Assembly: GCA_964444425.1 (NCBI GenBank)
Contig: CAYUHK010000004.1
Coordinates: 12,837 to 76,836 of the forward strand
DNA: 64,000 nt
Source of the DNA: an uncultured Verrucomicrobiota bacterium
Lineage (GTDB): Bacteria > Verrucomicrobiota > Kiritimatiellia > JAAZAB01
Direction of reading: 5' to 3'
Shown here piece by piece: positions 1,659 to 39,153 of the stretch. A program made the translations under genes and the position numbers. How positions within the stretch are numbered: the stretch's first letter is position 1; each line of letters starts with the position of its first letter. The notes below the pieces were generated by a model that was given only the letters and a program-made list of their open reading frames with translations, did no database searches and was not told where the DNA came from.

Positions 1659-2444
1659 TCATCGCAAGGTTTTCAGAAAACCAGCTATCCTTTTTAACAC
1701 TGCGACCTCAGCGGCGTCGGCGCCTTCATATTCCACCGAGAGAAAACCACGAAAGCCGGCTTGCGCCAGGATGGAGTGAATGCGCGCCCAATCAAAATTC
1801 TGATCGCGGCCATCCGCGAGAACATCGAAGAATTTAGCATGCACGATGGCGGCGTGGGGCGCACAACGCTGAATGGATTGATAGGTCTGCGGGCCCACCT
1901 GGCTGGTTGGCGGAAAATTACCCGTGTCTAAAGTGAATTTAAAAAATTCGTTGTCGACATCGCGCTGCAGCTTGAGCAGCTGATCGGCAGTGGTGCCGCC
2001 ATGGTTTTCCATCGCCATGACAATGCCTTGGCGGGCGCCCAACTCAGCGATTTGTTTGATCGCCTGGAGCACCTTTTGATATAGGCTGCTGCCGCCAGCT
2101 TCCAGCTCGGCGCCGCTGCCGCAGAAAAAGCGTACGCAGGGCGCTCCCAAGAAGGCGGCTACCTCCACCCAACGGGCGATCCCTTCGATCTGCTTCTGGC
2201 GTTCGGCGTCGTCATCAACTGTTAAGTGGCCATCGGCGGAAACCATTGCAATGGTCAAAAAATTATCGCTGCAGGCCTTTTTAAGTTTAATGAGATAATC
2301 GCGCTGTGTGCTCGGAAAATGACAGCCTAATAATTCCACTCCATCCAGGCCCAAGGCGGCACATTCCTTCAGCCATTGTATTTGATCCATAGAACCTTTT
2401 TCGAAGGCGCGGTGATAACTCCAAGAGCTACAAGATGTCTTCAT
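1659..2444 (-). CDS. sugar phosphate isomerase/epimerase (xylose isomerase-like TIM barrel)
   Basis: 261-aa ORF with the typical AP-endonuclease-2 / xylose-isomerase-like barrel pattern (LDGVEL, HAKF, VEYEG). Confidence 0.7.
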   Translation of the reverse strand: MKTSCSSWSYHRAFEKGSMDQIQWLKECAALGLDGVELLGCHFPSTQRDYLIKLKKACSDNFLTIAMVSADGHLTVDDDAERQKQIEGIARWVEVAAFLGAPCVRFFCGSGAELEAGGSSLYQKVLQAIKQIAELGARQGIVMAMENHGGTTADQLLKLQRDVDNEFFKFTLDTGNFPPTSQVGPQTYQSIQRCAPHAAIVHAKFFDVLADGRDQNFDWARIHSILAQAGFRGFLSVEYEGADAAEVAVLKRIAGFLKTLR

Positions 2445-2630
2445 GCTATTCTCCTTGTAATTTATGGATTAATGGGGCAAAGCCTAACAAGTCAAGCTTG
2501 GAAGTCAAGCAGAAGATGTATTGTGGGCGCGCACTTGATGATTAAGCTCTAGGCCCAGCTTGGCTGGAGCGGCCTAGCTTGGATTGCAGCCTTGAAATAA
2601 TAGGCTTAAACAACTATCCTTTGGCATCGC

Positions 2631-6221: not shown

Positions 6222-7577
6222 TCAAATGATGATGGCGCCGCCGGCCTGCAATAGGCGCCTGGTTTCGGCTGGGTTGACGCTGGCCACGCCGTGTTGACCC
6301 TTCCAGGCCTGCCAGGCCGCCACCCCGGCCGCTTCGCCGCATTGGTTCAGGTTGACCATGACGCGGACGGCGCCGAAGGCATCTCGATCCGCGTCCAGCA
6401 TGCGGCCAGCAACCAGGACATTGAAAGCCTTTTTGGGTATCAGGCAGCTCAGCGGTATCTGGTAAAATGGCAGCACCTCGCCCTCCGGCAGCCAGCGCTC
6501 GGCAGAAAGGAGTTGGCCGGCCCGATAAACGCGCGCTGTGCCATTCAAGGCTTTAAGGGAAATGGTTGCATCGGTGTCGTTATGAATGTCCACTGGGTAG
6601 GTGCCGTTGGCGATGGCATCGGGAAAGCGGCGTCCAGCCAGCAACTCTTCGCCGCGGAGCGTTCCTACGGAATAAATATGCAGACCTTCGCGAATGCCGA
6701 TTGCCGCTGGCAGAGTCTCTAGGCAGATCTGGCGCTGGGGAAATTCCATCCGGAGCATTGCCAGAATGGCTTTGATCTGGCGGCGGGCGGTAAGTTCCGC
6801 CCGGGTGATTTCATCGGCGTCGTTGCAGTCGCATTGCAAGACTCGCGTTCCAGCCAGCATATGGAGCTGGCTATTGGGAATTGACATATCCCAGTAATAG
6901 CCGCAGGGCAGGTCTGGCAGCTTTTCTCGATATTTATCCATGCATGCTTGCAGATTAAATCCGTCTGGGAAGGACCAGCCACTAAACCGGGCGCAGCTGG
7001 TTGGCGGCTGAGGATGCTCGGGGCGCCGCATGGCTAGGCCGGCGCTGCGCGTCAGCACGCCATCACCGGAAGCGTCGATAAATACTTTGGCACGAATGGC
7101 GTAACGGCCCGATTTATCCTCAGCGACAATCGCCTGCACCTGGCCGGGAGCGGCCATGACTGCCTGCGAAAAGGAGGTCTGTAGGTACAAAGTAATGTTT
7201 TTCTCGGCCATCACCATGGCATCGAGTTCCAGGGTGAGCTCCTCGGAATTCAAGCGGATACCATAATAGTCGGTCGGTTGACGGAAGGTGCTGCAGGCCG
7301 CGGTCTTCTCCAGGCGCTCAAGAGTTTCGAAGGTGAGCCCGCCGATGATCTGGCGGCTGCGCGTGATATCAAACAGCGAATGCCACATGCCGACCAGGCC
7401 CAAGGTGGCGACGCCGCCCAGCCGGTTCGACTTTTCCAGCAGCACAACCTTCGCGCCCAAGCGCGCCGCCCGCAATGCCGCAAACACGCCAGTGCAGCTG
7501 CCGCCGACCACGCAAATGTCGGCTTCAGTTTTGACAGCTAGCGTCTCGGGCGGCAGTAAAATTTTATTTTTATTCAT
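6222..7577 (-). CDS. FAD-dependent oxidoreductase (FAD_oxidored family)
   Basis: 451 aa with N-terminal dinucleotide-binding motif VVGGSCTGVFAALRAARLGAKVVLLEK. Lies 30 nt downstream of the btuD-like gene on the same strand. Confidence 0.7.
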   Translation of the reverse strand: MNKNKILLPPETLAVKTEADICVVGGSCTGVFAALRAARLGAKVVLLEKSNRLGGVATLGLVGMWHSLFDITRSRQIIGGLTFETLERLEKTAACSTFRQPTDYYGIRLNSEELTLELDAMVMAEKNITLYLQTSFSQAVMAAPGQVQAIVAEDKSGRYAIRAKVFIDASGDGVLTRSAGLAMRRPEHPQPPTSCARFSGWSFPDGFNLQACMDKYREKLPDLPCGYYWDMSIPNSQLHMLAGTRVLQCDCNDADEITRAELTARRQIKAILAMLRMEFPQRQICLETLPAAIGIREGLHIYSVGTLRGEELLAGRRFPDAIANGTYPVDIHNDTDATISLKALNGTARVYRAGQLLSAERWLPEGEVLPFYQIPLSCLIPKKAFNVLVAGRMLDADRDAFGAVRVMVNLNQCGEAAGVAAWQAWKGQHGVASVNPAETRRLLQAGGAIII

Positions 7578-7607
7578 GTTAGCCTGATTTATTTCTATTG
7601 ATTAATT

Positions 7608-8912
7608 TCATCCTAACCCAGGTTGACTGGGGCGGCCCTGGGGCATGAGCGCGGCGGCCAAGCTGGCCAGGGCCTCATGGACTTGGCTCCAAGGTCGCGC
7701 GCCATTTTGAAGCATTATTTTAATGCGCGCGGAAGCGGCCTGGTCGGCGGTATAATCGCGGCCAGCCAGGTCGCGATCGTTGATCAGCACGATTTTACCG
7801 CTCCGCAGGGCGCTGGCGGCTATGTCCAGATTGACCAAGTTACCAGGTCCGAAGGGCACCTGGCAGACTATCACGGCAGCGGCAGCGGCGGCCAGCCGCT
7901 GAGCCTCTGCTAAGGCGGCCGGCGCGATTGGTGAAAATGGTTTTTCGAGGGCTTGCTCTGCGCCTAGCGCGGCGGCAGTTTGGGCGTCGGAATCCAACTG
8001 GTTAAGCACGCCGCAGGAGAGGCGGTAGCCGCTCAGCGAAAGTCGCCGCAAGAGCTCAGCGCCGCTGCCGCCGCCAGCAATCAAATGCACGCGCGCGTTG
8101 GTGTCACCGGCTGATTGGGGCAAGCGCCGCGAGGGCGCCACGAAGAGGCCGCCGGTTTGGTTATCCTGTTGCACGTGCAGGTCGCAGCGATAAACCTCTC
8201 GCAGGATGTCTTTCTGCAGCACCGCCGCCGGCGGGCCATCGGCGGCCACGCGGCCTTGATCTAGCAGGACCAAGCGTTGGCAGAACTCGGCGGCCAGGTT
8301 TAAATCGTGGCTGGTCATAAGCACGGTTACGCCTTGTTCGCGGTTGAGGCGTTCAACTATTTGCATGATTTCCAGCGAATGGTTTAGGTCGAGATGGGTG
8401 GTAGGTTCGTCCATCACGATCAGGCGGGGTTGCTGGGCCAGGGCCATGGCTATGATGGCGCGTTGCTTTTCGCCGCCGCTCAGGGCATCGAGGGGACGGT
8501 CGCCTAGCTCGTGCACATCTGTTTGGGCCATGGCGCGTTGGGCCACCTGGCGGTCGGCGGCGGAGGGTTGTTGCCAGGGTTTAAGCAGAGCTGCGCGGCC
8601 CATCAAGACCAGCTCGGCAACGCTATAGGCCATGGGAGTCTTGAGTTCCTGGGGCACTACCGCCACCAGCCGGGCGCGCTCGGCGGCGCGCAGCTTATTT
8701 AGATTTTGACCGAACAAGCGCACCGTGCCGCTGCTTGGCGGCAGCAGGCCGGTAAGCACGCGCAGCAAAGTGGATTTGCCGGCGCCATTAGGACCTAGCA
8801 GGGCGACGCTTTCGCCGGCAGCCACACTCAGGTTAAGGTTTTGAAATATCAGAGCCGTGCCATAGCCGGCGCTTAATTGTTGGAGTTCGCAAGCCGGTTT
8901 CATTCCAGCCAC
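7608..8912 (-). CDS. ABC transporter ATP-binding protein (BtuD/FecE-like) with ~170-aa C-terminal extension of unknown function
   Basis: Walker A GPNGAGKST, ABC signature LSGGEKQR, Walker B LIVMDEPT and H-loop in the first ~260 aa. The C-terminal ~170 aa (HLIAGGGSGAELL...VIVCQVPFGPGNLVNL...) match no motif I recognise. Confidence 0.8.
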   Translation of the reverse strand: MAGMKPACELQQLSAGYGTALIFQNLNLSVAAGESVALLGPNGAGKSTLLRVLTGLLPPSSGTVRLFGQNLNKLRAAERARLVAVVPQELKTPMAYSVAELVLMGRAALLKPWQQPSAADRQVAQRAMAQTDVHELGDRPLDALSGGEKQRAIIAMALAQQPRLIVMDEPTTHLDLNHSLEIMQIVERLNREQGVTVLMTSHDLNLAAEFCQRLVLLDQGRVAADGPPAAVLQKDILREVYRCDLHVQQDNQTGGLFVAPSRRLPQSAGDTNARVHLIAGGGSGAELLRRLSLSGYRLSCGVLNQLDSDAQTAAALGAEQALEKPFSPIAPAALAEAQRLAAAAAAVIVCQVPFGPGNLVNLDIAASALRSGKIVLINDRDLAGRDYTADQAASARIKIMLQNGARPWSQVHEALASLAAALMPQGRPSQPGLG

Positions 8913-27939: not shown

Positions 27940-28812
27940 TCAGGGTGTTTTTTTACCATAAACCGCCGCTTCCAAGGCTTGGCGCATAGCCGGCACAGGC
28001 GCCTGTATGCCAGTCCAGATGGTGAAGGAAAGGGCGCCTTGATGCAATAACATGCCTAAGCCATTAGCGGCGCGCGCGCCGCGCGCGCGGGCCATTCGCA
28101 TGAGCGGGGTTTCCGGAAACATGTAGATCAAATCATACAGCGCTTGCCCTGGTCGAAAAGTTTCTGGCGGCAACGGCGCGGCTTCTTCTGGATTCATGCC
28201 ACATGGCGTGGCCTGTACGATCAGGTCCGCAGCCTGCCCGGCTTGCGCCCAGGCGGTCGTTTCGGGCGCTAGCGGTTGGGCTACTAATGGATTGGGCAAG
28301 CTGGTTAGTTCCTGGGTTAATTTTTCTACGCTGAGCATATTTTTATCGGCTAACAGCAAGCGCCGCGCTCCAGCGCGGGCCGCGGCCAAGGCTACAGCGC
28401 GGCCAGCGCCGCCGCAGCCGAGGATGAAAAGCGTAGAGTTGGCTACGGATAACTGCAAATCCTCCTGAATGGCCCGCAGGAAACCTTCACCATCCGTGCT
28501 GAAGCCTTCCAACCCGTTGGATGTGAATTTAACGGTATTGACTGATCTAAGCTGGCGGGCCGATTCATCTAGATGGGCGATGCCCTGGAAGGCGACTTCC
28601 TTCAGCGGGATGGTTAGGTTGACGCCAATAAATCCCAGTTCGGCCAAGCTTGTTAAAGTTGCTAGCAGGCGCGCTGGCGCCACATCGAAGGCCAGATAGA
28701 GCGCTTCTTTTTTTAGGGCCTGGAAGGCCGCGTTATGCATGGCTGGGGAAAGCGAATGGCCGATAGGATGACCAAGCACGGCAAAAAGCTGGGTATGCGG
28801 AGATATATTCAT
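27940..28812 (-). CDS. aroE: shikimate dehydrogenase
   Basis: 290 aa with N-terminal substrate-binding motif (LFAVLGHPIGHSLSP) and GAGGAARA NADP-binding glycine motif. Confidence 0.8.
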   Translation of the reverse strand: MNISPHTQLFAVLGHPIGHSLSPAMHNAAFQALKKEALYLAFDVAPARLLATLTSLAELGFIGVNLTIPLKEVAFQGIAHLDESARQLRSVNTVKFTSNGLEGFSTDGEGFLRAIQEDLQLSVANSTLFILGCGGAGRAVALAAARAGARRLLLADKNMLSVEKLTQELTSLPNPLVAQPLAPETTAWAQAGQAADLIVQATPCGMNPEEAAPLPPETFRPGQALYDLIYMFPETPLMRMARARGARAANGLGMLLHQGALSFTIWTGIQAPVPAMRQALEAAVYGKKTP

Positions 28813-28868
28813 GCCTAGAGACCTATCGAGCTATCCGGCTAGCGCATCTGGCGCGTAATCTGGCCGGC

Positions 28869-30401
28869 CTATTTTTTTTGGCGCGCGTATAAAACCCGGT
28901 TAATACAGCTTAAATAGGCGGCTGCGCTGGCTTGAACGATATCGGTGCTGGCAGCTTTGCCGCCAACTACATCATCGTCAAAGGCTACGCGCAGACTGAC
29001 TTCGCCCAAGGCATCCTTGCCAACCGTTACGGCTTGGATATTGTAGTCCAGCAATTTCCCATGATTTCCGGTGATGCGATCTATGGTCTTTAAGGCCGCG
29101 TCCACGGGGCCATCGCCACAGGCGGCATCCTGGATTATCTCCGAGCCTTTTTGCAGACGCACAGTGGCGGTGGGCACGGTATTGGTGCCAGTGGCTACGT
29201 GTAGATAATCGAGCACATAAATGGCGGGCACATCCTCCATCTCATCTCGGGCAATGGCCACCAGATCATCATCATAGATGGTTTTTTTCTTGTCGGCCAG
29301 GTCAATGAAGCGGTTATAGGCGCGTTCCAATTCCTGGGGATTCAAGCGAAAACCCATTTTAGCCAGTCGATCTACAAAAGCATGGCGTCCGGAATGCTTG
29401 CCGAGCACCAGATCAGATCCTTCAATGCCGATGTCTTCGGCGCGCATTATTTCATAGGTGGAGCGTTCTTTTAGAATGCCGTCTTGATGGATGCCGGCTT
29501 CATGGGCAAAGGCGTTGGCGCCGACGATCGCCTTATTGCGCTGCACCACCATTCCAGTAAGGCGGCTGACTAAGCGGCTGGTTTTATAGAGCTCACGGGT
29601 ATTTATGGCAGTGGTGGCATTAAAGGCGTCGCCGCGCGTCCGCAGCGCCATGACCAGCTCTTCAAGGGCGCAATTGCCGGCGCGCTCGCCCAGTCCATTA
29701 ATGGTGCATTCGATGCCGCCGGCGCCGTTTTGCACGGCAGCGAGCGAGTTGGCTACCGCCAGGCCTAAATCGTTATGACAATGCACGTTAATCAACGCTT
29801 GTTGGATATTGGATACACGCTCGAACAGGAAGGCGATCAAGCGGCCAAATTCATCCGGCAAGGCATAGCCGACGGTATCGGGAATATCAACGGTTGCCGC
29901 GCCGGCGTCGATGACGGCCTGGGTTATTTCGGCAAGGAAATCGGCTTCGGTGCGGGTGGCATCTTCGGCGCTGAATTCTACATCGGCGCATAATTTGCGT
30001 GCATAAGCAACGGCGGAGGTCGCCTGTTTAAGGATGGCTAGTTTATCCTTTTTTAGTTTGAATTGCCGATGGATCGGCGAGGTGGCCAGAAAAACATGGA
30101 TCCGGCCGCGCTCTCCAGCTGGCGCCAGGGCCTCAGCGCAACGCTCAATATCCTTATTCAGGCAGCGCGCCAGGCCGGCGATGCGTGGGCCCTTGATTGT
30201 CTCGGCGACCGCTTGCACGGCCAAAAAATCATTGGGCGAGGCGATGGGAAAACCGGCTTCGATAACGTCAACATTCAAGCGCGCCAGCTGCTGAGCTATC
30301 TCCAATTTTTCGCGATGATTCAGGCTAGCGCCCGGGCATTGTTCGCCATCCCGCAGGGTGGTATCAAGAATCAATATTTTTTTATTAGCTTTGCTTTGCA
30401 T
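28869..30401 (-). CDS. leuA: 2-isopropylmalate synthase / citramalate synthase family (LeuA-type with C-terminal regulatory domain)
   Basis: 510 aa starting LILDTTLRDGEQ (DRE-TIM metallolyase), with HCHNDLGLAVANSLAAV motif and a C-terminal LeuA-dimer domain. Confidence 0.8.
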   Translation of the reverse strand: MQSKANKKILILDTTLRDGEQCPGASLNHREKLEIAQQLARLNVDVIEAGFPIASPNDFLAVQAVAETIKGPRIAGLARCLNKDIERCAEALAPAGERGRIHVFLATSPIHRQFKLKKDKLAILKQATSAVAYARKLCADVEFSAEDATRTEADFLAEITQAVIDAGAATVDIPDTVGYALPDEFGRLIAFLFERVSNIQQALINVHCHNDLGLAVANSLAAVQNGAGGIECTINGLGERAGNCALEELVMALRTRGDAFNATTAINTRELYKTSRLVSRLTGMVVQRNKAIVGANAFAHEAGIHQDGILKERSTYEIMRAEDIGIEGSDLVLGKHSGRHAFVDRLAKMGFRLNPQELERAYNRFIDLADKKKTIYDDDLVAIARDEMEDVPAIYVLDYLHVATGTNTVPTATVRLQKGSEIIQDAACGDGPVDAALKTIDRITGNHGKLLDYNIQAVTVGKDALGEVSLRVAFDDDVVGGKAASTDIVQASAAAYLSCINRVLYARQKK

Positions 30402-30610
30402 CGTAGGTCCTATCTGCGGTGGCCTAGTTGGCGCTTAGCCTTTAGGCCGGGCCATTTGATCCTCCGGGCGACCAAGATCTACGCTTGATCAGCTTTAGTC
30501 GGTCCGTTGCTGTCATCAATAAACTAGTCGGCTTAAAAAGCCAAGTTTTTTGGGCTAGCCCATGGAGCTTGGAGCCACGCCTGACAACAAGCCAAGCGGC
30601 TTTAAATCTA

Positions 30611-31090
30611 TTAATTCTCCAAGCCGGCCAAGGCAATAACTCCGGTTCGCGAAACTTCCATGATACCATTTGGCTTAAGCAACTCTAGGAAATTATCCAC
30701 TTCTTCGGTAGAGCCCACCAATTGCATGGTCAGCGACTGATTCTGGACGCAAATAATCTCGGCATGAAAAAGCGCGGCCAGCTCGATGAGCATCGAGCGG
30801 TTTTTAGCGCTCAGGTTGGTCTTCACCAATATTAATTCGCGGCCCATATATTTTTCTTTAGTAAGATCAAAGACCTTGATGACGTCCACTAATTTATTTA
30901 ACTGTTTGGTGACCTGCTCCAAAATGTGGTCGTCTCCCGGCACCACCATGGTAATGCGTGAAATGGTATTATCCTGAGTAGGCGCCACATTTAGGCTGTG
31001 AATATTATAGCCCCGCCCGGAGATCAGGCCGATAATCCGCGCCAGCACTCCTGGTCGGTTTTCCACCATTGCCGATATGATCCGTTTCAT
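30611..31090 (-). CDS. ilvN: acetolactate synthase small (regulatory) subunit
   Basis: 159 aa with ACT domain start (RIISAMVENRPGVLARIIGLISGRGYNI), typical IlvN/IlvH. Confidence 0.85.
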   Translation of the reverse strand: MKRIISAMVENRPGVLARIIGLISGRGYNIHSLNVAPTQDNTISRITMVVPGDDHILEQVTKQLNKLVDVIKVFDLTKEKYMGRELILVKTNLSAKNRSMLIELAALFHAEIICVQNQSLTMQLVGSTEEVDNFLELLKPNGIMEVSRTGVIALAGLEN

Positions 31091-31161
31091 AATATATTCC
31101 TTATCTTTATTCTATATCCCTCAAACATTTCGCGTTCAGTTCTGCGCCAGCGGCTGGCCAG

Positions 31162-32883
31162 CTAGGCCATACTTTGAATCATTTCGGTCAGCGTTGCACC
31201 AGAGGGCACCATCGGGTAGACATTGGCTTCCGGCTCCACCAGGCATTCGACCACGGCGGGGCATTCCGATTCAAAAGCCTGCTTCAACTTGGGCATCAGT
31301 TCAGCTTTTGATTGTACGCGCAGGCCCAGTGCGCCGTGAGCTTCCGCCAATTTCACGAAGTCTGGCAGGTATATATCGGCGGACTCAGGCGTGGATTGCT
31401 CTTTTTTATTCCGACAGCTGCGTCCAAGCTTAGTTGCCGAATATTGTTTATGATAGAAGAGCTCCTGCCATTGCCGCACCATACCTAGATAAGTATTGTT
31501 TAAGATCACCATCTTGACAGGGATCTGGTTTTCCACGGCCACCACCAGCTCCTGGAAATTCATTTGGGCGCCGCCATCGCCGGAAATGTTAACCACCAGC
31601 TGGTCGGGCCGGCCCATTTTAGCGCCGATCGCCGCCGGCAAGCCAAAGCCCATCGTGCCCAATCCTCCGGATGAGAGGAAAGTACGTGGTCGGGTATACT
31701 GATAATAATGTGCTGACCACATTTGATGCTGGCCCACGTCGGTTACGATTATGGCTTCGCCTTTGGTCAAGGCGTAGATTTGTTCAATGACGTATTGGGG
31801 CATTAAGCTTGAGTTGTTTTGCTCGTATGAGAAGGGATATTTCTCCTTCCATTCCGCTATCCGATTTAGCCAGAGCTGGCGCTCCTTGGCTTCCACCAAG
31901 GGGATAAGCTCCAGCAGCACTTGCTTGGCATCGCCTACCACAGGGATATCCACCGGCACGCTTTTGGAGATGGCCGTGGGATCGATATCGATATGGGCTA
32001 TTTGTGCGCGCGGGGCGAATTCGCTGATCTTGCCGGTGACCCGGTCATCAAAGCGGGCGCCGATAGAGACCAGTAAATCGCAATGTTGGGTTGCGTAATT
32101 TGCGCTCACGCTCCCATGCATGCCGAGCATGCGCAAGGCCAGCGGATCGGTTTCCGGAAAGCTGCCTAGGCCTTGCAAGGTGGTGGTCACCGGTATTTTT
32201 GCTTTGCGGGCCAACTGGATTACTTCGTTAGCGGCATTGCTGATGATCGCGCCGCCGCCCACGTATAATAGCGGTTCTTTGGCCTTGTTGATGGCATCAG
32301 CCAGCTTGATGATCTGCTTAGGGTGCCCCTCGCGGGTGGGGTTATATCCGCGGATGTTCACAGCGTTAGGGGTTGGCGCCTTGGTTTTGGCCTGTTGCAC
32401 ATCCTTGGGGATATCCACCAACACTGGACCAGGCCGGCCAGAGCCGGCGATATAAAAAGCCTCGGCAATGATTCGGGGCAAATCATCCACATTGCGCACC
32501 AGGTAATTATGTTTGGTTACCGGGCGAGTGATGCCAGTGATGTCGGCTTCCTGAAAAGCATCGTTGCCGATCATTAAGGAGGGCACTTGGCCGGTGATGC
32601 AGACCACTGGGCTGGAATCCATACAGGCGGTGGCCAGGCCGGTTACCGTATTGGTGGCGCCCGGGCCAGATGTGACTATGCAACAGCCCACTCGCCCGGT
32701 TGCCCGCGCATAGCCGTCGGCCATATGGGCGGCTCCCTGTTCATGGCGGCACAGTAAAAATTTAAATGGCGCATTGTATAACTTATCAAAAATATCCAAC
32801 ACGGCGCCGCCGGGCAGGCCGAAAATAGTTTCCACACCAGCCTTTTTAAGGCCATCCATCAAACATTCCACACCAGTTCTCAT
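31162..32883 (-). CDS. ilvB: acetolactate synthase large (catalytic) subunit
   Basis: 573 aa ThDP enzyme with GLPGGA motif, ThDP-binding GDGGAQMN...NN motif and strong AAGGAG-like RBS (AAGGAG, 7 nt upstream). Confidence 0.9.
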   Translation of the reverse strand: MRTGVECLMDGLKKAGVETIFGLPGGAVLDIFDKLYNAPFKFLLCRHEQGAAHMADGYARATGRVGCCIVTSGPGATNTVTGLATACMDSSPVVCITGQVPSLMIGNDAFQEADITGITRPVTKHNYLVRNVDDLPRIIAEAFYIAGSGRPGPVLVDIPKDVQQAKTKAPTPNAVNIRGYNPTREGHPKQIIKLADAINKAKEPLLYVGGGAIISNAANEVIQLARKAKIPVTTTLQGLGSFPETDPLALRMLGMHGSVSANYATQHCDLLVSIGARFDDRVTGKISEFAPRAQIAHIDIDPTAISKSVPVDIPVVGDAKQVLLELIPLVEAKERQLWLNRIAEWKEKYPFSYEQNNSSLMPQYVIEQIYALTKGEAIIVTDVGQHQMWSAHYYQYTRPRTFLSSGGLGTMGFGLPAAIGAKMGRPDQLVVNISGDGGAQMNFQELVVAVENQIPVKMVILNNTYLGMVRQWQELFYHKQYSATKLGRSCRNKKEQSTPESADIYLPDFVKLAEAHGALGLRVQSKAELMPKLKQAFESECPAVVECLVEPEANVYPMVPSGATLTEMIQSMA

Positions 32884-32938
32884 AACGATCTCCTTTGCTT
32901 GCTATGACTTTATCATTGGCATTATCGGCACCATTTAC

Positions 32939-32966
32939 AAAAAAACCCACCGTTTTTTACGGTGGG
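32939..32966 (-). terminator. intrinsic terminator of the ilv leader (attenuator)
   Basis: On the minus strand: CCCACCG-uaaaaaa-CGGUGGG hairpin (7-bp GC-rich stem) followed by UUUUUUU, 55 nt upstream of the ilvB start. Confidence 0.6.
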
Positions 32967-32998
32967 TTGTTATACCGGTTCAAAGAGAGGTTGCGGTT

Positions 32999-33109
32999 TT
33001 AGCCGCACTCCGGTCCCACCGCGCAGCGGACCACGAGCGCCAAGACCAACAATACAAGGCCCAGGACGTTTGCAAGACGCATTTGCGCGATGGAAGCCTG
33101 ATAATTCAT
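32999..33109 (-). CDS. ilv operon leader peptide (Val/Leu-rich), attenuation control
   Basis: 36-aa ORF MNYQASIAQMRLANVLGLVLLVLALVVRCAVGPECG. It has 14/36 branched-chain residues, including the run VLGLVLLVLALVV. It ends 33 nt before the terminator hairpin. Its codons 29-31 (GCGGUGGGA) duplicate the terminator 3' stem and can pair with the 5' stem as an antiterminator. Confidence 0.55.
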   Translation of the reverse strand: MNYQASIAQMRLANVLGLVLLVLALVVRCAVGPECG

Positions 33110-33317
33110 AAGTGCAGTTAATTTCTCACAACCGGCGGAACAATGTCAATTGCTTTTTTTATATTTTTACTGCTGGGCTTAGGCTGCCAGTCTAATCAAC
33201 TTGCCTTTTGGAGTGATCCTGTTATAAGCAGCTTATCGAGCGGGCTTATCGATTATTAACAGCTATAAAATCGATGTTCGTTGGCTGGCGCCAACGGATC
33301 AGCGCGGCATAGGTCTC

Positions 33318-33503
33318 TTGGCTGTCGGCCAGCCCATTTTGGAAATTAGCACTCATCACTATACGGCGGATGATTTTACACGTGCGCGGCACACGTTCGA
33401 ATTACAACGCCGCAATGGAACGATCCTTAACCTCGACTACCGTCGCGGGGGTCTTGGCAGCAACCGGCGCGGGCCCTTGCCCTTACCCCCCAATATCTGT
33501 TAA
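33318..33503 (+). pseudogene. remnant of the C-terminal end of a GH2 beta-galactosidase (truncated fragment)
   Basis: 61-codon ORF ...LEISTHHYTADDFTRARHTFELQRRNGTILNLDYRRGGLGSN resembles the extreme C-terminus of LacZ-type GH2 enzymes (..[43 protein letters not shown]). No upstream GH2 body is present. Confidence 0.3.
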
Positions 33504-33679
33504 TGCCAGGGGAGATATCTTTTTCCGTGCGTCAGAGGGCCTTCTCGTCGGCAACCGATACGCCCATGCAGCTAAGCCATTAGATGCCAGAGTTGGCTTA
33601 ACTATAAGCTTGATATAAAATACTTGTTTATAAAGCTCGGCTAAATTAGCATGATCTCTAAAATAAAAATGGAGTTAAC

Positions 33680-34741
33680 ATGGAAAACAAACTGATGCAA
33701 GCGGCCGTCATTAAAAGCCCCGGAGTCATTGCCATCGAGATGATTCCTAGGCCGGTGCCAGCGGCAGGCGAGGTCTTGTTGAAGATAGAGGCCTGTGCTT
33801 TGTGCGGCACAGATCAACGCGTTTTAAAGGGCGAGAAGCACGTGGATGTCGCCATCGTTGGCCATGAGATTAGCGGAACAGTTGTGGCCTTAGGCCAGGA
33901 GGTTCGGGGCGTTAGTCTGGGTCAACGCTATATTGTACAAACTGTGATTGGCTGTGGCGTCTGCCCGATGTGTCGAATTCAGCGCGAAAATCTTTGCGAA
34001 AAGGGATTCATCGCCATGGGCTATCAGTTCAACGGTGGATTTGCTGAATATATGATCATGCCCCGAGTGGCGGTGGAGCAAGGCTGTTTGATCCCCATTC
34101 CGAATGATCTGCCCGCCGAAATCGGCACTCTGATCGAGCCACTGAGCTGTTGTGTTAACGGTATGAAATACATACCTCTGGAGCAGACGGAACATGTTGT
34201 TATTTTCGGCGGCGGAATCATTGGGGTACTCAACGGTCTAGTGGCTCGCGCGCGCGGCGCAAAAACCATTACCATCATGGATGTGTCTCAAGCGCGCCTG
34301 GATTTGCTGCGCCGGCTTGATTTGCCGTTCGATAATCTAATCAATTCGGCTCAAGTAAGCCCGGCGGCCTGGGTTAAAGATGCTACGGCCGGCCGCGGCG
34401 TGGATGCGGTAGTGGTGGCCGTCTCGCTGAAAAAATTGGTAACCGAAGGCCTTGGGCTATTGCGCCGCGCTGGCCATCTTTCCATATTCGCGGGCATGCC
34501 GAAATCAGATGCCTTGGAATTAGTAGACTTGAATAAAATTCATTATTATGAGTTGAGCTTGCATGGTGCCAATAGCTCGGCGCAAGCCGAATATCTACAA
34601 GCTCGTGATTTCTTAGTTAGCGGCAAGATCAAAGGGGCCCCCTTGGTAACCCACCGCTTTTCTTTAGAGCGTTTTCATGAGGCGGTAAAAATACAGGCTG
34701 ATCCAGCCCAGGGATCTTTAAAGGTGATTATTATACCCTGA
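33680..34741 (+). CDS. zinc-dependent alcohol/polyol dehydrogenase (MDR family, sorbitol/threonine-DH-like)
   Basis: 353 aa with catalytic Zn ligands (CGTD, GHE) and structural Zn cysteine cluster (CGVCPMCRIQRENLC), plus Rossmann GGGIIG. Confidence 0.8.
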   Translation: MENKLMQAAVIKSPGVIAIEMIPRPVPAAGEVLLKIEACALCGTDQRVLKGEKHVDVAIVGHEISGTVVALGQEVRGVSLGQRYIVQTVIGCGVCPMCRIQRENLCEKGFIAMGYQFNGGFAEYMIMPRVAVEQGCLIPIPNDLPAEIGTLIEPLSCCVNGMKYIPLEQTEHVVIFGGGIIGVLNGLVARARGAKTITIMDVSQARLDLLRRLDLPFDNLINSAQVSPAAWVKDATAGRGVDAVVVAVSLKKLVTEGLGLLRRAGHLSIFAGMPKSDALELVDLNKIHYYELSLHGANSSAQAEYLQARDFLVSGKIKGAPLVTHRFSLERFHEAVKIQADPAQGSLKVIIIP

Positions 34742-39077: not shown

Positions 39078-39153
39078 GGGGCAGTAGCTCAGTTGGTAGA
39101 GCATCACGTTCGCAACGTGGGGGCCAGGGGTTCGAATCCCCTCTGCTCCACCA
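39078..39153 (+). tRNA. tRNA-Ala (anticodon CGC)
   Basis: 76-nt cloverleaf. Acceptor stem GGGGCAG/CTGCTCC with G3:U70 Ala identity pair, D-arm GCTCAGTTGGTAGAGC, anticodon loop TTCGCAA, T-arm AGGGGTTCGAATCCCCT, encoded CCA. Confidence 0.9.

Follow-up and report, generated by a model that had tools for sequence, protein, structure and literature searches.

The enterobacterial leaders of ilvGMEDA (ilvL), ilvBN (ivbL) and leu (leuL), like the trp paradigm, have a 5' untranslated region (5' UTR) and initiate translation from a Shine-Dalgarno (SD) sequence, and the decision taken by the classical trp attenuator is kinetic. Pfam-A, NCBIfam and Rfam include models for enterobacterial leaders. We analyzed a stretch of 64,000 nucleotides from an uncultured Verrucomicrobiota bacterium (GTDB lineage Kiritimatiellia; JAAZAB01; assembly GCA_964444425.1, contig CAYUHK010000004.1, positions 12,837 to 76,836), hereafter the window, whose own numbering is used throughout. 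On its minus strand, directly upstream of an ilvB-ilvN-leuA-aroE operon, lies an element that we read, with a probability of roughly 80%, as a ribosome-mediated transcription attenuator of that operon which would sense charged Leu, Val and Ile tRNAs. Its closest analogue appears to be the ilvBNC attenuator of Corynebacterium glutamicum.

Experimental demonstrations of leader-peptide attenuation have so far come mainly from Proteobacteria and Actinobacteria, with a few from Firmicutes. According to a 2010 survey, earlier demonstrations of leader peptides were confined to Proteobacteria and Actinobacteria, and the survey added the Firmicutes (PMC2965389). The C. glutamicum ilvBNC operon is preceded by the leader peptide IlvL (MTIIRLVVVTARRLP), described by a three-hairpin model (PMC11857589, PMC10272879); transcription starts 1 nt from the leader start codon, and mutation of the Val codons or of the AUG abolishes regulation (PMC11857589). 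The ilvB leaders of Mycobacterium and Streptomyces resemble that of C. glutamicum (PMC1262725, PMC13236596). In Staphylococcus aureus, the ilv-leu operon has a Leu-rich attenuator peptide that is Leu-specific and acts together with CodY (PMC5794164). The preliminary description of the present locus had stated that such attenuation is annotated in very few non-proteobacterial genomes. This is fair if overstated; experimental cases are on record for Actinobacteria (PMC11857589, PMC13236596) and Firmicutes (PMC5794164). Full-text searches revealed no literature in which leader-peptide attenuation is combined with Verrucomicrobia, Planctomycetes, Lentisphaerae or Kiritimatiellae; the wider survey that Lopatovskaya et al. 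published in 2010 (cited in PMC4833913) lay outside these searches.

The leader element was present directly upstream of ilvB in 11 of 12 other related loci (IlvB 66-83% identical), giving 12 loci with the window. These 12 share a promoter, an AUG without an SD sequence, an Ile/Leu/Val-rich open reading frame (ORF) of 28-40 codons and four RNA segments, and the carriers have the gene order ilvB-ilvN-leuA-aroE in common. The preliminary description had named related genomes as the place where a branched-chain amino acid (BCAA)-rich leader ORF might be missing; it is kept in all but one of the loci compared. Individual loci are referred to by labels of the form L164. Read along the minus strand, the parts of the element in the window are as follows.

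33153..33169, minus strand: A/T-rich tract UAAAAAUAUAAAAAAAG directly upstream of the -35 hexamer, UP-element-like and possibly acting as such
33144..33149, minus strand: -35 hexamer TTGACA; TTGAC(A/T/G) is invariant in all 12 loci
33120..33128, minus strand: -10 region, either AGAAAT (33126..33121, 17-nt spacer) or TG-n-GAAATT (33128..33120, 18-nt spacer)
32999..33109, minus strand: leader ORF of 36 codons plus UAA, without an SD sequence; ATG at 33109, stop codon at 33001..32999
33084..33098, minus strand: segment 1, GG-CUUCCAUCGCGCA, 5' arm of the anti-antiterminator helix P1 according to minimum free energy (MFE) structures and covariation
33029..33076, minus strand: regulatory codon run, codons 12-27 (L A N V L G L V L L V L A L V V), inside the P1 loop domain
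33012..33026, minus strand: segment 2, UGCGCGGUGGGACC, 3' arm of P1 and 5' arm of the antiterminator according to folds and conservation
32992..33007, minus strand: stop-codon hairpin UGCGGC-UAAAAC-CGCA with the UAA in its loop, nested inside the antiterminator
32959..32968, minus strand: segment 3, AACCCACCGU, 5' arm of the terminator and 3' arm of the antiterminator according to folds and conservation
32939..32953, minus strand: segment 4, ACGGUGGGUU and U-tract, 3' arm and tail of the intrinsic terminator according to folds and conservation

Like the C. glutamicum attenuator, the element stands upstream of ilvB-ilvN, has an Ile/Val/Leu-rich leader and a Rho-independent terminator before ilvB, is predicted to form anti-antiterminator, antiterminator and terminator hairpins, and seems to have a leaderless start, here suggested by the spacing between promoter and AUG. 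It differs in belonging to another phylum, in the length of the leader (28-40 codons against 15), in having its regulatory codons inside the 1:2 loop, and in an operon with leuA and aroE instead of ilvC; the C. glutamicum element has been tested experimentally, whereas our case is built on sequence. No shared Rfam, Pfam or NCBIfam family was detected between the two. With the enterobacterial leaders the element has in common the four segments and their 1:2, 2:3 and 3:4 pairings, an apparently multivalent Leu/Val/Ile control, a leader of about 30 codons, and a terminator that is not clearly less stable than the antiterminator, which points to a kinetic decision. In contrast to them it lacks an SD sequence, shows no sequence relationship (Pfam-A, NCBIfam and Rfam without a match at E <= 10) and has a stop codon that follows segment 2, whereas theirs falls between segments 1 and 2. 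As a candidate BCAA leader-peptide attenuator outside Proteobacteria and Actinobacteria it resembles S. aureus ilv-leu (PMC5794164) and the leader peptides of Firmicutes (PMC2965389). The S. aureus system belongs to another phylum and is marked by Leu specificity and CodY.

Family searches agreed with this lack of relationship. Rfam 15, searched in this region of the window at E <= 10, gave no match at gathering score; near the site, on the opposite strand, Hrs13 (20 bits, gathering 52) and the rimP leader (16 bits, gathering 47) showed a resemblance to the terminator only. At gathering scores the whole window and seven relatives yielded nothing except a tRNA and a tmRNA, and the tRNA at 39078..39150 (plus strand) was the sole match in the window. 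T-box, riboswitch and other Rfam families were rejected as there were no Rfam matches. Seven leader peptides had no match in Pfam-A at E <= 10, and in NCBIfam a single irrelevant one (HdeD, E = 0.017, far below the cut-off), so that membership of an enterobacterial leader-peptide family was rejected as well.

The window IlvB was 100% identical to a protein found on 10 contigs (NCBI and Logan assemblies). Its nearest relatives were 69-83% identical and came from metagenome-assembled genomes (MAGs) labelled Kiritimatiellia/Kiritimatiellae, Verrucomicrobia and Lentisphaerae, a taxonomy that consists of the names given by the submitters of the IlvB homologues. On these names the window probably derives from a Kiritimatiellia-type member of the PVC superphylum; no marker gene that would confirm the placement was found in the window. 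A contig identical to the window's is present in the runs SRR8925820, SRR8925823 and SRR8925826. Twelve further ilvB loci were obtained through exact-protein look-ups, and one more, L002, came from an IlvB-based genome scan. Such scans of genomes and metagenome contigs used very generic peptide patterns, and the best among the matches listed were 66% and 57% identical; L001 and L002 were the loci of use from them. A covariance model, R1, built from nine of the sequences, found the held-out L002 (E 2e-11), L172 (1e-9) and L175 (6e-6) at the right place. Applied to 60 ilvB loci of less closely related genomes and metagenome contigs, R1 gave no significant match (best E = 0.03). Within the window, neither a motif scan nor a scan for promoter-adjacent ORFs revealed a second attenuator of the same type.

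The terminator was described preliminarily as strong, with a U7 tail and 55 nt ahead of ilvB, and this holds. The hairpin AACCCACCGU-AAAAA-ACGGUGGGUU with its U-tract (32968..32939, minus strand) has 10 pairs, six of them G-C, folds at -16.2 kcal/mol (z = -4.2 vs shuffles), and its U-tract ends 55 nt before the ilvB ATG (32883). The number of terminator-like sites in the region is within chance, and the leader as a whole folds better than shuffled sequences (z = -3.4). What takes the observation beyond chance is its conservation in relatives. The terminator is conserved in 12 of 12 loci, with one mismatch in L175; CGGUGGG followed by U6-9 is invariant in all loci except L175, which has CGGCGGGC and a weaker tail, and the core of segment 3 reads CC(A/G)CCG across loci.

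Segments 1 and 3 are alike, as are segments 2 and 4, and this near-identity may point to an origin of the switch by duplication of the terminator arms. The core of segment 2, CGGUGG (33021..33016), is invariant in all 12 loci, even though it is read in another frame in L172 and L002. The preliminary description had taken a codon copy of the terminator 3' stem for the 5' arm of an antiterminator. The potential for this pairing was recovered, as the segment 2 core can pair with segment 3 in 12 of 12 loci; the codons involved (GCG GUG GGA) are, however, numbers 30-32 and not 29-31. Folding, which had been suggested as a check, and pair counting together showed mutually exclusive 1:2, 2:3 and 3:4 pairings in the window and in its 11 relatives. 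In 10 of 11 sequences the fold of the full leader consisted of a long 1:2 domain around the Ile/Leu/Val run, the stop-codon hairpin and the 3:4 terminator, while in L168 segment 1 paired further downstream. When the 5' part was removed and segment 4 was absent, 2:3 was the MFE structure in 11 of 11 sequences. A hairpin between segments 2 and 3 was likewise predicted in each of the 11 relatives folded.

Pairings were counted in a nine-sequence MAFFT alignment, from which L172 and L002 were left out (MAFFT misplaced their segment 1), then in a covariance-model realignment of 12 sequences and by anchor-based counting. RNAalifold, given the nine-sequence alignment, predicted the 1:2 helix and the terminator independently. 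In these nine sequences 98% of the cells of 1:2 and 3:4 pair, against 37-53% in slid controls, three pairs change on both sides, and none of 500 shuffles reached the covariation score. The pair flanking the 1:2 core occurs in UG, UA, GC and CG forms. With 12 sequences, in an alignment that was fitted to the covariance model and thus leans towards structure, 96.7% of the cells pair, four pairs change on both sides and again 0/500 shuffles reached the score; slid controls were here 35-54% paired. For the 2:3 antiterminator, the 6-bp core is present in 12 of 12 loci and 88-90% of the cells are paired (slid controls, 33-46%), with one flanking pair changing on both sides (AU, CG and GC, and GU in the window by anchor-based counting). 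The 2:3 pairing is thus conserved in these alignments and unproven by covariation. Weak covariation is to be expected here, because segments 2 and 3 each pair with two partners.

These comparisons added to the preliminary description a conserved anti-antiterminator helix between segments 1 and 2, a likely leaderless ORF, the conserved small stop-codon hairpin and conservation across the lineage.

In relatives, the -35 hexamer is followed after a 17-nt spacer by TAAATT, TAAAAA, TATAAA, TAGAGT, TAATAA, TAGATT or a similar TAnnn(T/A)-like -10, and by the leader AUG 7-9 nt later; A/T-rich tracts similar to that of the window precede the -35 in L164, L166, L168, L170, L171 and L172. The leader mRNA is probably leaderless, or has a 5' UTR of no more than about 5 nt, as the promoter-proximal AUG and the absence of an SD sequence suggest. 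A rather unlikely alternative, the likeliest of three, keeps the attenuator and replaces its start: the promoter would lie further upstream, TTGACA and its -10 would not be the start site, and the AUG would be internal to a conventional leader ORF. The window -10 (AGAAAT or GAAATT) is indeed weak and 10-11 nt from the AUG, the site was not listed by a promoter scan at its stricter consensus threshold, and five relatives have a reading frame that continues open on the 5' side of the AUG. Against this, an SD-like sequence precedes the AUG in 0 of 12 loci, the whole arrangement of TTGAC(A/T/G), spacer, -10 and AUG recurs in 11 otherwise divergent relatives, and the upstream in-frame extensions vary in length, start codon and sequence. 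The structural gene ilvB does have an SD sequence, AAGGAG, which with the start codon occupies 32881..32895 (minus strand, read from the sequence), and SD-led initiation there contrasts with the leader ORF. In L174, a tmRNA gene (2204-2558, minus strand) lies just upstream of the leader promoter.

The leader peptides of the 12 loci are listed below.

Window: MNYQASIAQMRLANVLGLVLLVLALVVRCAVGPECG
L164: MSSIFSIVHAQLANVRVLVLSALTLAVRFTVDPGRG
L166: MSNSLAIVTVVVGLLQALVLRLVEGRAFTVANGRG
L167: MRNFLAIVSVVVGLLQALVLCLVEGRAFTVANGCG
L170: MNGCFVIVKVVGGLLRALVLCLVEGRAFTVANGRG
L168: MKNKYPIVRLDKTGLLAVELLVVLLAPVGGTGR
L169: MKNKYPIVRLNATELLAVELLVVLRAPVGKTGR
L171: MSNKTSIARLKGAGLSVAGLLVVLRPAVGEPPG
L172: MKNYHTTVVIREVNGALRGALVLRLAVPGAWHGGQPLQPA
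L174: MNMILSIVTTTVAVLLVLQRGVVCLVRPVAVGSTLEA
L002: MNESKPIATVLDNAVVVLRTAGVYLGLVLVRPPRWEGDC
L175: MKTQKVTVVSLLLGLALGLRVGLCPTVD

A recount confirmed 36 codons in the window leader with seven Leu, six Val and one Ile, 11 of 13 consecutive residues being branched-chain. The distance from its stop codon to the terminator, previously given as 33 nt, is 30 nt to the first stem base and 32 nt to CCCACCG. Taken alone, the window leader is 39% Ile/Leu/Val against a background of 24% in the window's long ORFs (binomial P ~0.04). When the 12 leaders are taken together, 37% of the in-frame codons specify Ile, Leu or Val, compared with 12% and 10% in the two alternative frames, and U occupies codon position 2 in 42% in frame against 16% and 14%. 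Stops are absent from the leader frame and number 29 and 13 in the alternatives; all 12 loci keep the frame open. Rare-codon use showed no clear bias except for somewhat more GUA, CUC and AUC. Nonsynonymous and synonymous codon differences between leaders of close relatives numbered 5/5, 9/3, 9/4, 5/6 (L168/L169) and 19/7, so that nonsynonymous changes equalled or exceeded synonymous ones in four of five pairs, and there was no third-position excess. As judged from these comparisons, the leader frame and codon composition are under selection and the amino-acid sequence is not.

The geometry of the ORF relative to the RNA appears to be under selection too. The segment 1 core CCAUCG occupies nt 17-22 of the ORF (codons 6-8) in 11 tabulated loci and nt 18-23 in L175. 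The stop codon follows segment 2 by 12-19 nt (14 nt in 8 of 11 tabulated loci), or by 2 nt in L175. In L172 and L002, where indels have shifted segment 2 to another frame, the stop codon has moved and the distance is kept, which suggests that the position of the stop codon follows the RNA rather than the reading frame.

These results bear on a second alternative, improbable in our estimation and clearly more so than a conventional start, in which a protein, small ligand or tRNA would switch the hairpins and the ORF would be incidental. It draws on the facts that conservation is strongest at the RNA level, that segment 2 is kept whatever its frame, and that the ilvB leader of Streptomyces coelicolor, although attenuator-like, reportedly gave no response to mutation of its regulatory codons (PMC1262725). 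A translation-independent switch would leave unexplained the frame-specific Ile/Leu/Val bias and 3-nt periodicity, the open frame, the constant distance from stop codon to segment 2 despite frame shifts, and the fixed distance of the AUG from promoter and segment 1; T-box, riboswitch and other Rfam families had no match even at E <= 10. It is very improbable that the ORF, placed beside ilvB by chance, encodes a real small membrane protein of hydrophobic character and has a terminator of its own. The peptide is hydrophobic and of transmembrane-helix length, and in L167 the homologous ORF was annotated by one pipeline as a protein of 44 aa. Its amino-acid sequence, however, is unconserved (nonsynonymous ~ synonymous) while IlvB is highly conserved, and conservation lies in the segments through which the RNA pairs. 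The ORF is directly upstream of ilvB in 12 of 12 loci with its 3' end built into hairpins that compete with the terminator, and Pfam and NCBIfam families gave no match. Selection on translation, on the kind of codon and on geometry relative to the RNA, and not on the peptide, is the pattern of a leader peptide and argues against a functional small membrane protein. The 44-aa hypothetical protein of L167 (734-868), called from an upstream in-frame start inside the promoter, is probably a mis-annotated leader peptide.

Under the attenuator reading, a strong sigma-70-type promoter would start transcription right at the leader AUG or no more than about 5 nt from it, and translation would be leaderless. 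In RNA without a ribosome, or behind one that has moved on, segment 1 (CCAUCG) would pair with segment 2 (CGGUGG), leaving segment 3 free; the 3:4 terminator would form and transcription would stop at 32939. When BCAA-tRNAs are plentiful, the ribosome would reach the last codons or the stop codon, 14 nt past segment 2, and cover segment 2, again with termination. When they are scarce, a ribosome would hold segments 1 and 2 apart by stalling in the Ile/Leu/Val run that separates them, segment 2 would pair with segment 3 as soon as the latter is transcribed, the terminator would be blocked and polymerase would read through into ilvB. The constant spacing of 16 nt between the 5'-terminal AUG and segment 1 raises the possibility that the 1:2 helix gates loading of 70S ribosomes as well, in which case the element would read ribosome availability in addition to Leu/Val/Ile-tRNA charging.

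The energies computed for the window are compatible with such a switch. The 1:2 (P1) domain folds at -36.3 kcal/mol and the antiterminator domain, including the nested stop-codon hairpin (-6.4 kcal/mol by itself), at -26.1 kcal/mol; in this model P1, antiterminator and terminator are of comparable energy. Stalling was simulated by forcing a 28-nt ribosome footprint to be unpaired at each A-site codon. With stalls at codons 3-17 and 23-26, 2:3 was predicted as the best fold of a transcript ending after segment 3. With the ribosome anywhere from codon 28 to the stop, segment 2 was covered or re-paired with segment 1, and segment 3 was free for the terminator.

Every testable sequence-level prediction of the attenuator reading (conserved layout, alternative pairings, codon bias) was supported. 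Several observations nevertheless weigh against it. Once segment 4 is present, the terminator fold is favoured at equilibrium in 9 of 11 sequences, so the switch must be kinetic, as in the classical model. The 2:3 covariation score was reached by 14-16 of 500 shuffles, and the support for this pairing is mainly its invariance. In the simulation, P1 could close around a ribosome stalled at codons 18-22, in a model that has no steric term. The window AUG, at 10-11 nt from the -10 instead of 7-9, allows for a short 5' UTR. Ile/Leu/Val account for only 28-30% of the leaders of L171 and L172; enrichment in a single ORF is modest, and the case therefore rests on comparison with relatives. One relative, L173 (IlvB 71% identical, operon without leuA), lacks the leader element. 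Finally, the S. coelicolor result means that a good-looking attenuator can fail an experimental test.

The mechanism is well known and not new; what would be new is its occurrence in this phylum-level group. If our reading is correct, the known phylogenetic range of leader-peptide attenuation extends to Kiritimatiellia, an uncultured-rich lineage of the PVC superphylum, and the understanding of attenuation itself is unchanged. The element and its covariance model provide a cis-regulatory handle on BCAA regulation in organisms known almost only from MAGs, and they offer indirect evidence for translation of leaderless mRNA in these bacteria. The attenuator would also account for the approximately 225 nt without a called gene before ilvB, and argues against the hypothetical-protein call made in one MAG. 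More tentatively, and at slightly less than even odds, the element may represent a family of attenuators that evolved independently and is restricted to Kiritimatiellia-type PVC bacteria, which would be both the first leader-peptide attenuator and the first regulation by a leaderless 5'-AUG mini-ORF described in the superphylum.

The genes of the putatively regulated operon, whose identities had been proposed in the preliminary description and were confirmed by Pfam, are as follows.

27940..32883, minus strand: the operon ilvB-ilvN-leuA-aroE, in an order shared with relatives
32883..31162, minus strand: ilvB (Pfam TPP_enzyme N/M/C)
31090..30611, minus strand: ilvN (Pfam ACT_AHAS_ss, ALS_ss_C)
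30401..28869, minus strand: leuA (Pfam HMGL-like, LeuA_dimer)
28812..27940, minus strand: aroE (Pfam Shikimate_dh_N, SDH_C)

The last of these genes, aroE, belongs to the aromatic amino-acid pathway and is consistently the last gene of the operon in the window, L164 and L166-L175. Placed in an ilvB-ilvN-leuA operon, it would be co-attenuated with the BCAA genes, an odd linkage across pathways. In L173, aroE is retained beside ilvBN although leuA is missing from that operon, which reads ilvB-ilvN-aroE-pilD-like. The upstream region of L173 (2759-3000) is G+C-rich, with a TTGACG-17-CATAAT promoter and no terminator; the attenuator has been lost in the same operon that lost leuA (n = 1). Locus L001 ends at a contig end inside the terminator and shows the terminator half only.

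The ilvN-leuA spacer of the window (30402..30610, minus strand) is 209 nt long and contains a weak terminator-like hairpin at 30544..30528; the corresponding spacers of relatives measure between 12 and 445 nt. It may harbour a second, internal control point, but no leader-like ORF was seen in the spacer. Between leuA and aroE, three relatives carry small 23S_rRNA_IVP / bAvd genes (PF05635, PF22296). In L170, a 305-nt insert containing 'TTCAGGATACAG'-like words separates the attenuator terminator from ilvB, and words of this kind also precede ilvB in the unrelated L003. The coordinates listed with insertions are 6912-7121 in L164, 5106-5486 in L167, and 7470-7722 and 2696-3000 in L170. On the other side of the element, about 530 nt (33150..33680) extend from the leader promoter to a divergent gene for a zinc-type alcohol dehydrogenase (33680..34741, plus strand). 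Called genes are absent from this interval in the identical contigs, and its ORFs at 33246..33392 (minus strand) and 33370..33618 (plus strand) had no Pfam match.

We also scanned 174 loci for an Ile/Leu/Val-rich upstream ORF (uORF) plus terminator ahead of ilvB, at a threshold too strict for a survey. The scan drew attention to L137, an unrelated metagenome contig in which an Ile/Leu/Val-rich uORF, MFLVSLVVVLLVSISLLLIGSQASLGGLRPD, and after it the terminator GGCCTCC-aacacg-GGAGGCC-TTTTT lie ahead of ilvB, at a distance of ~285 to 146 nt. This is possibly another, independent BCAA leader. In L011 (1-330), from an unclassified MAG, three tandem units of ~100 nt lie upstream of ilvB, each with the inverted repeat AACATGAATGTT / CTCAACATAAATGTTGAG and an SD-led mini-ORF, MTVSVHPQ*.

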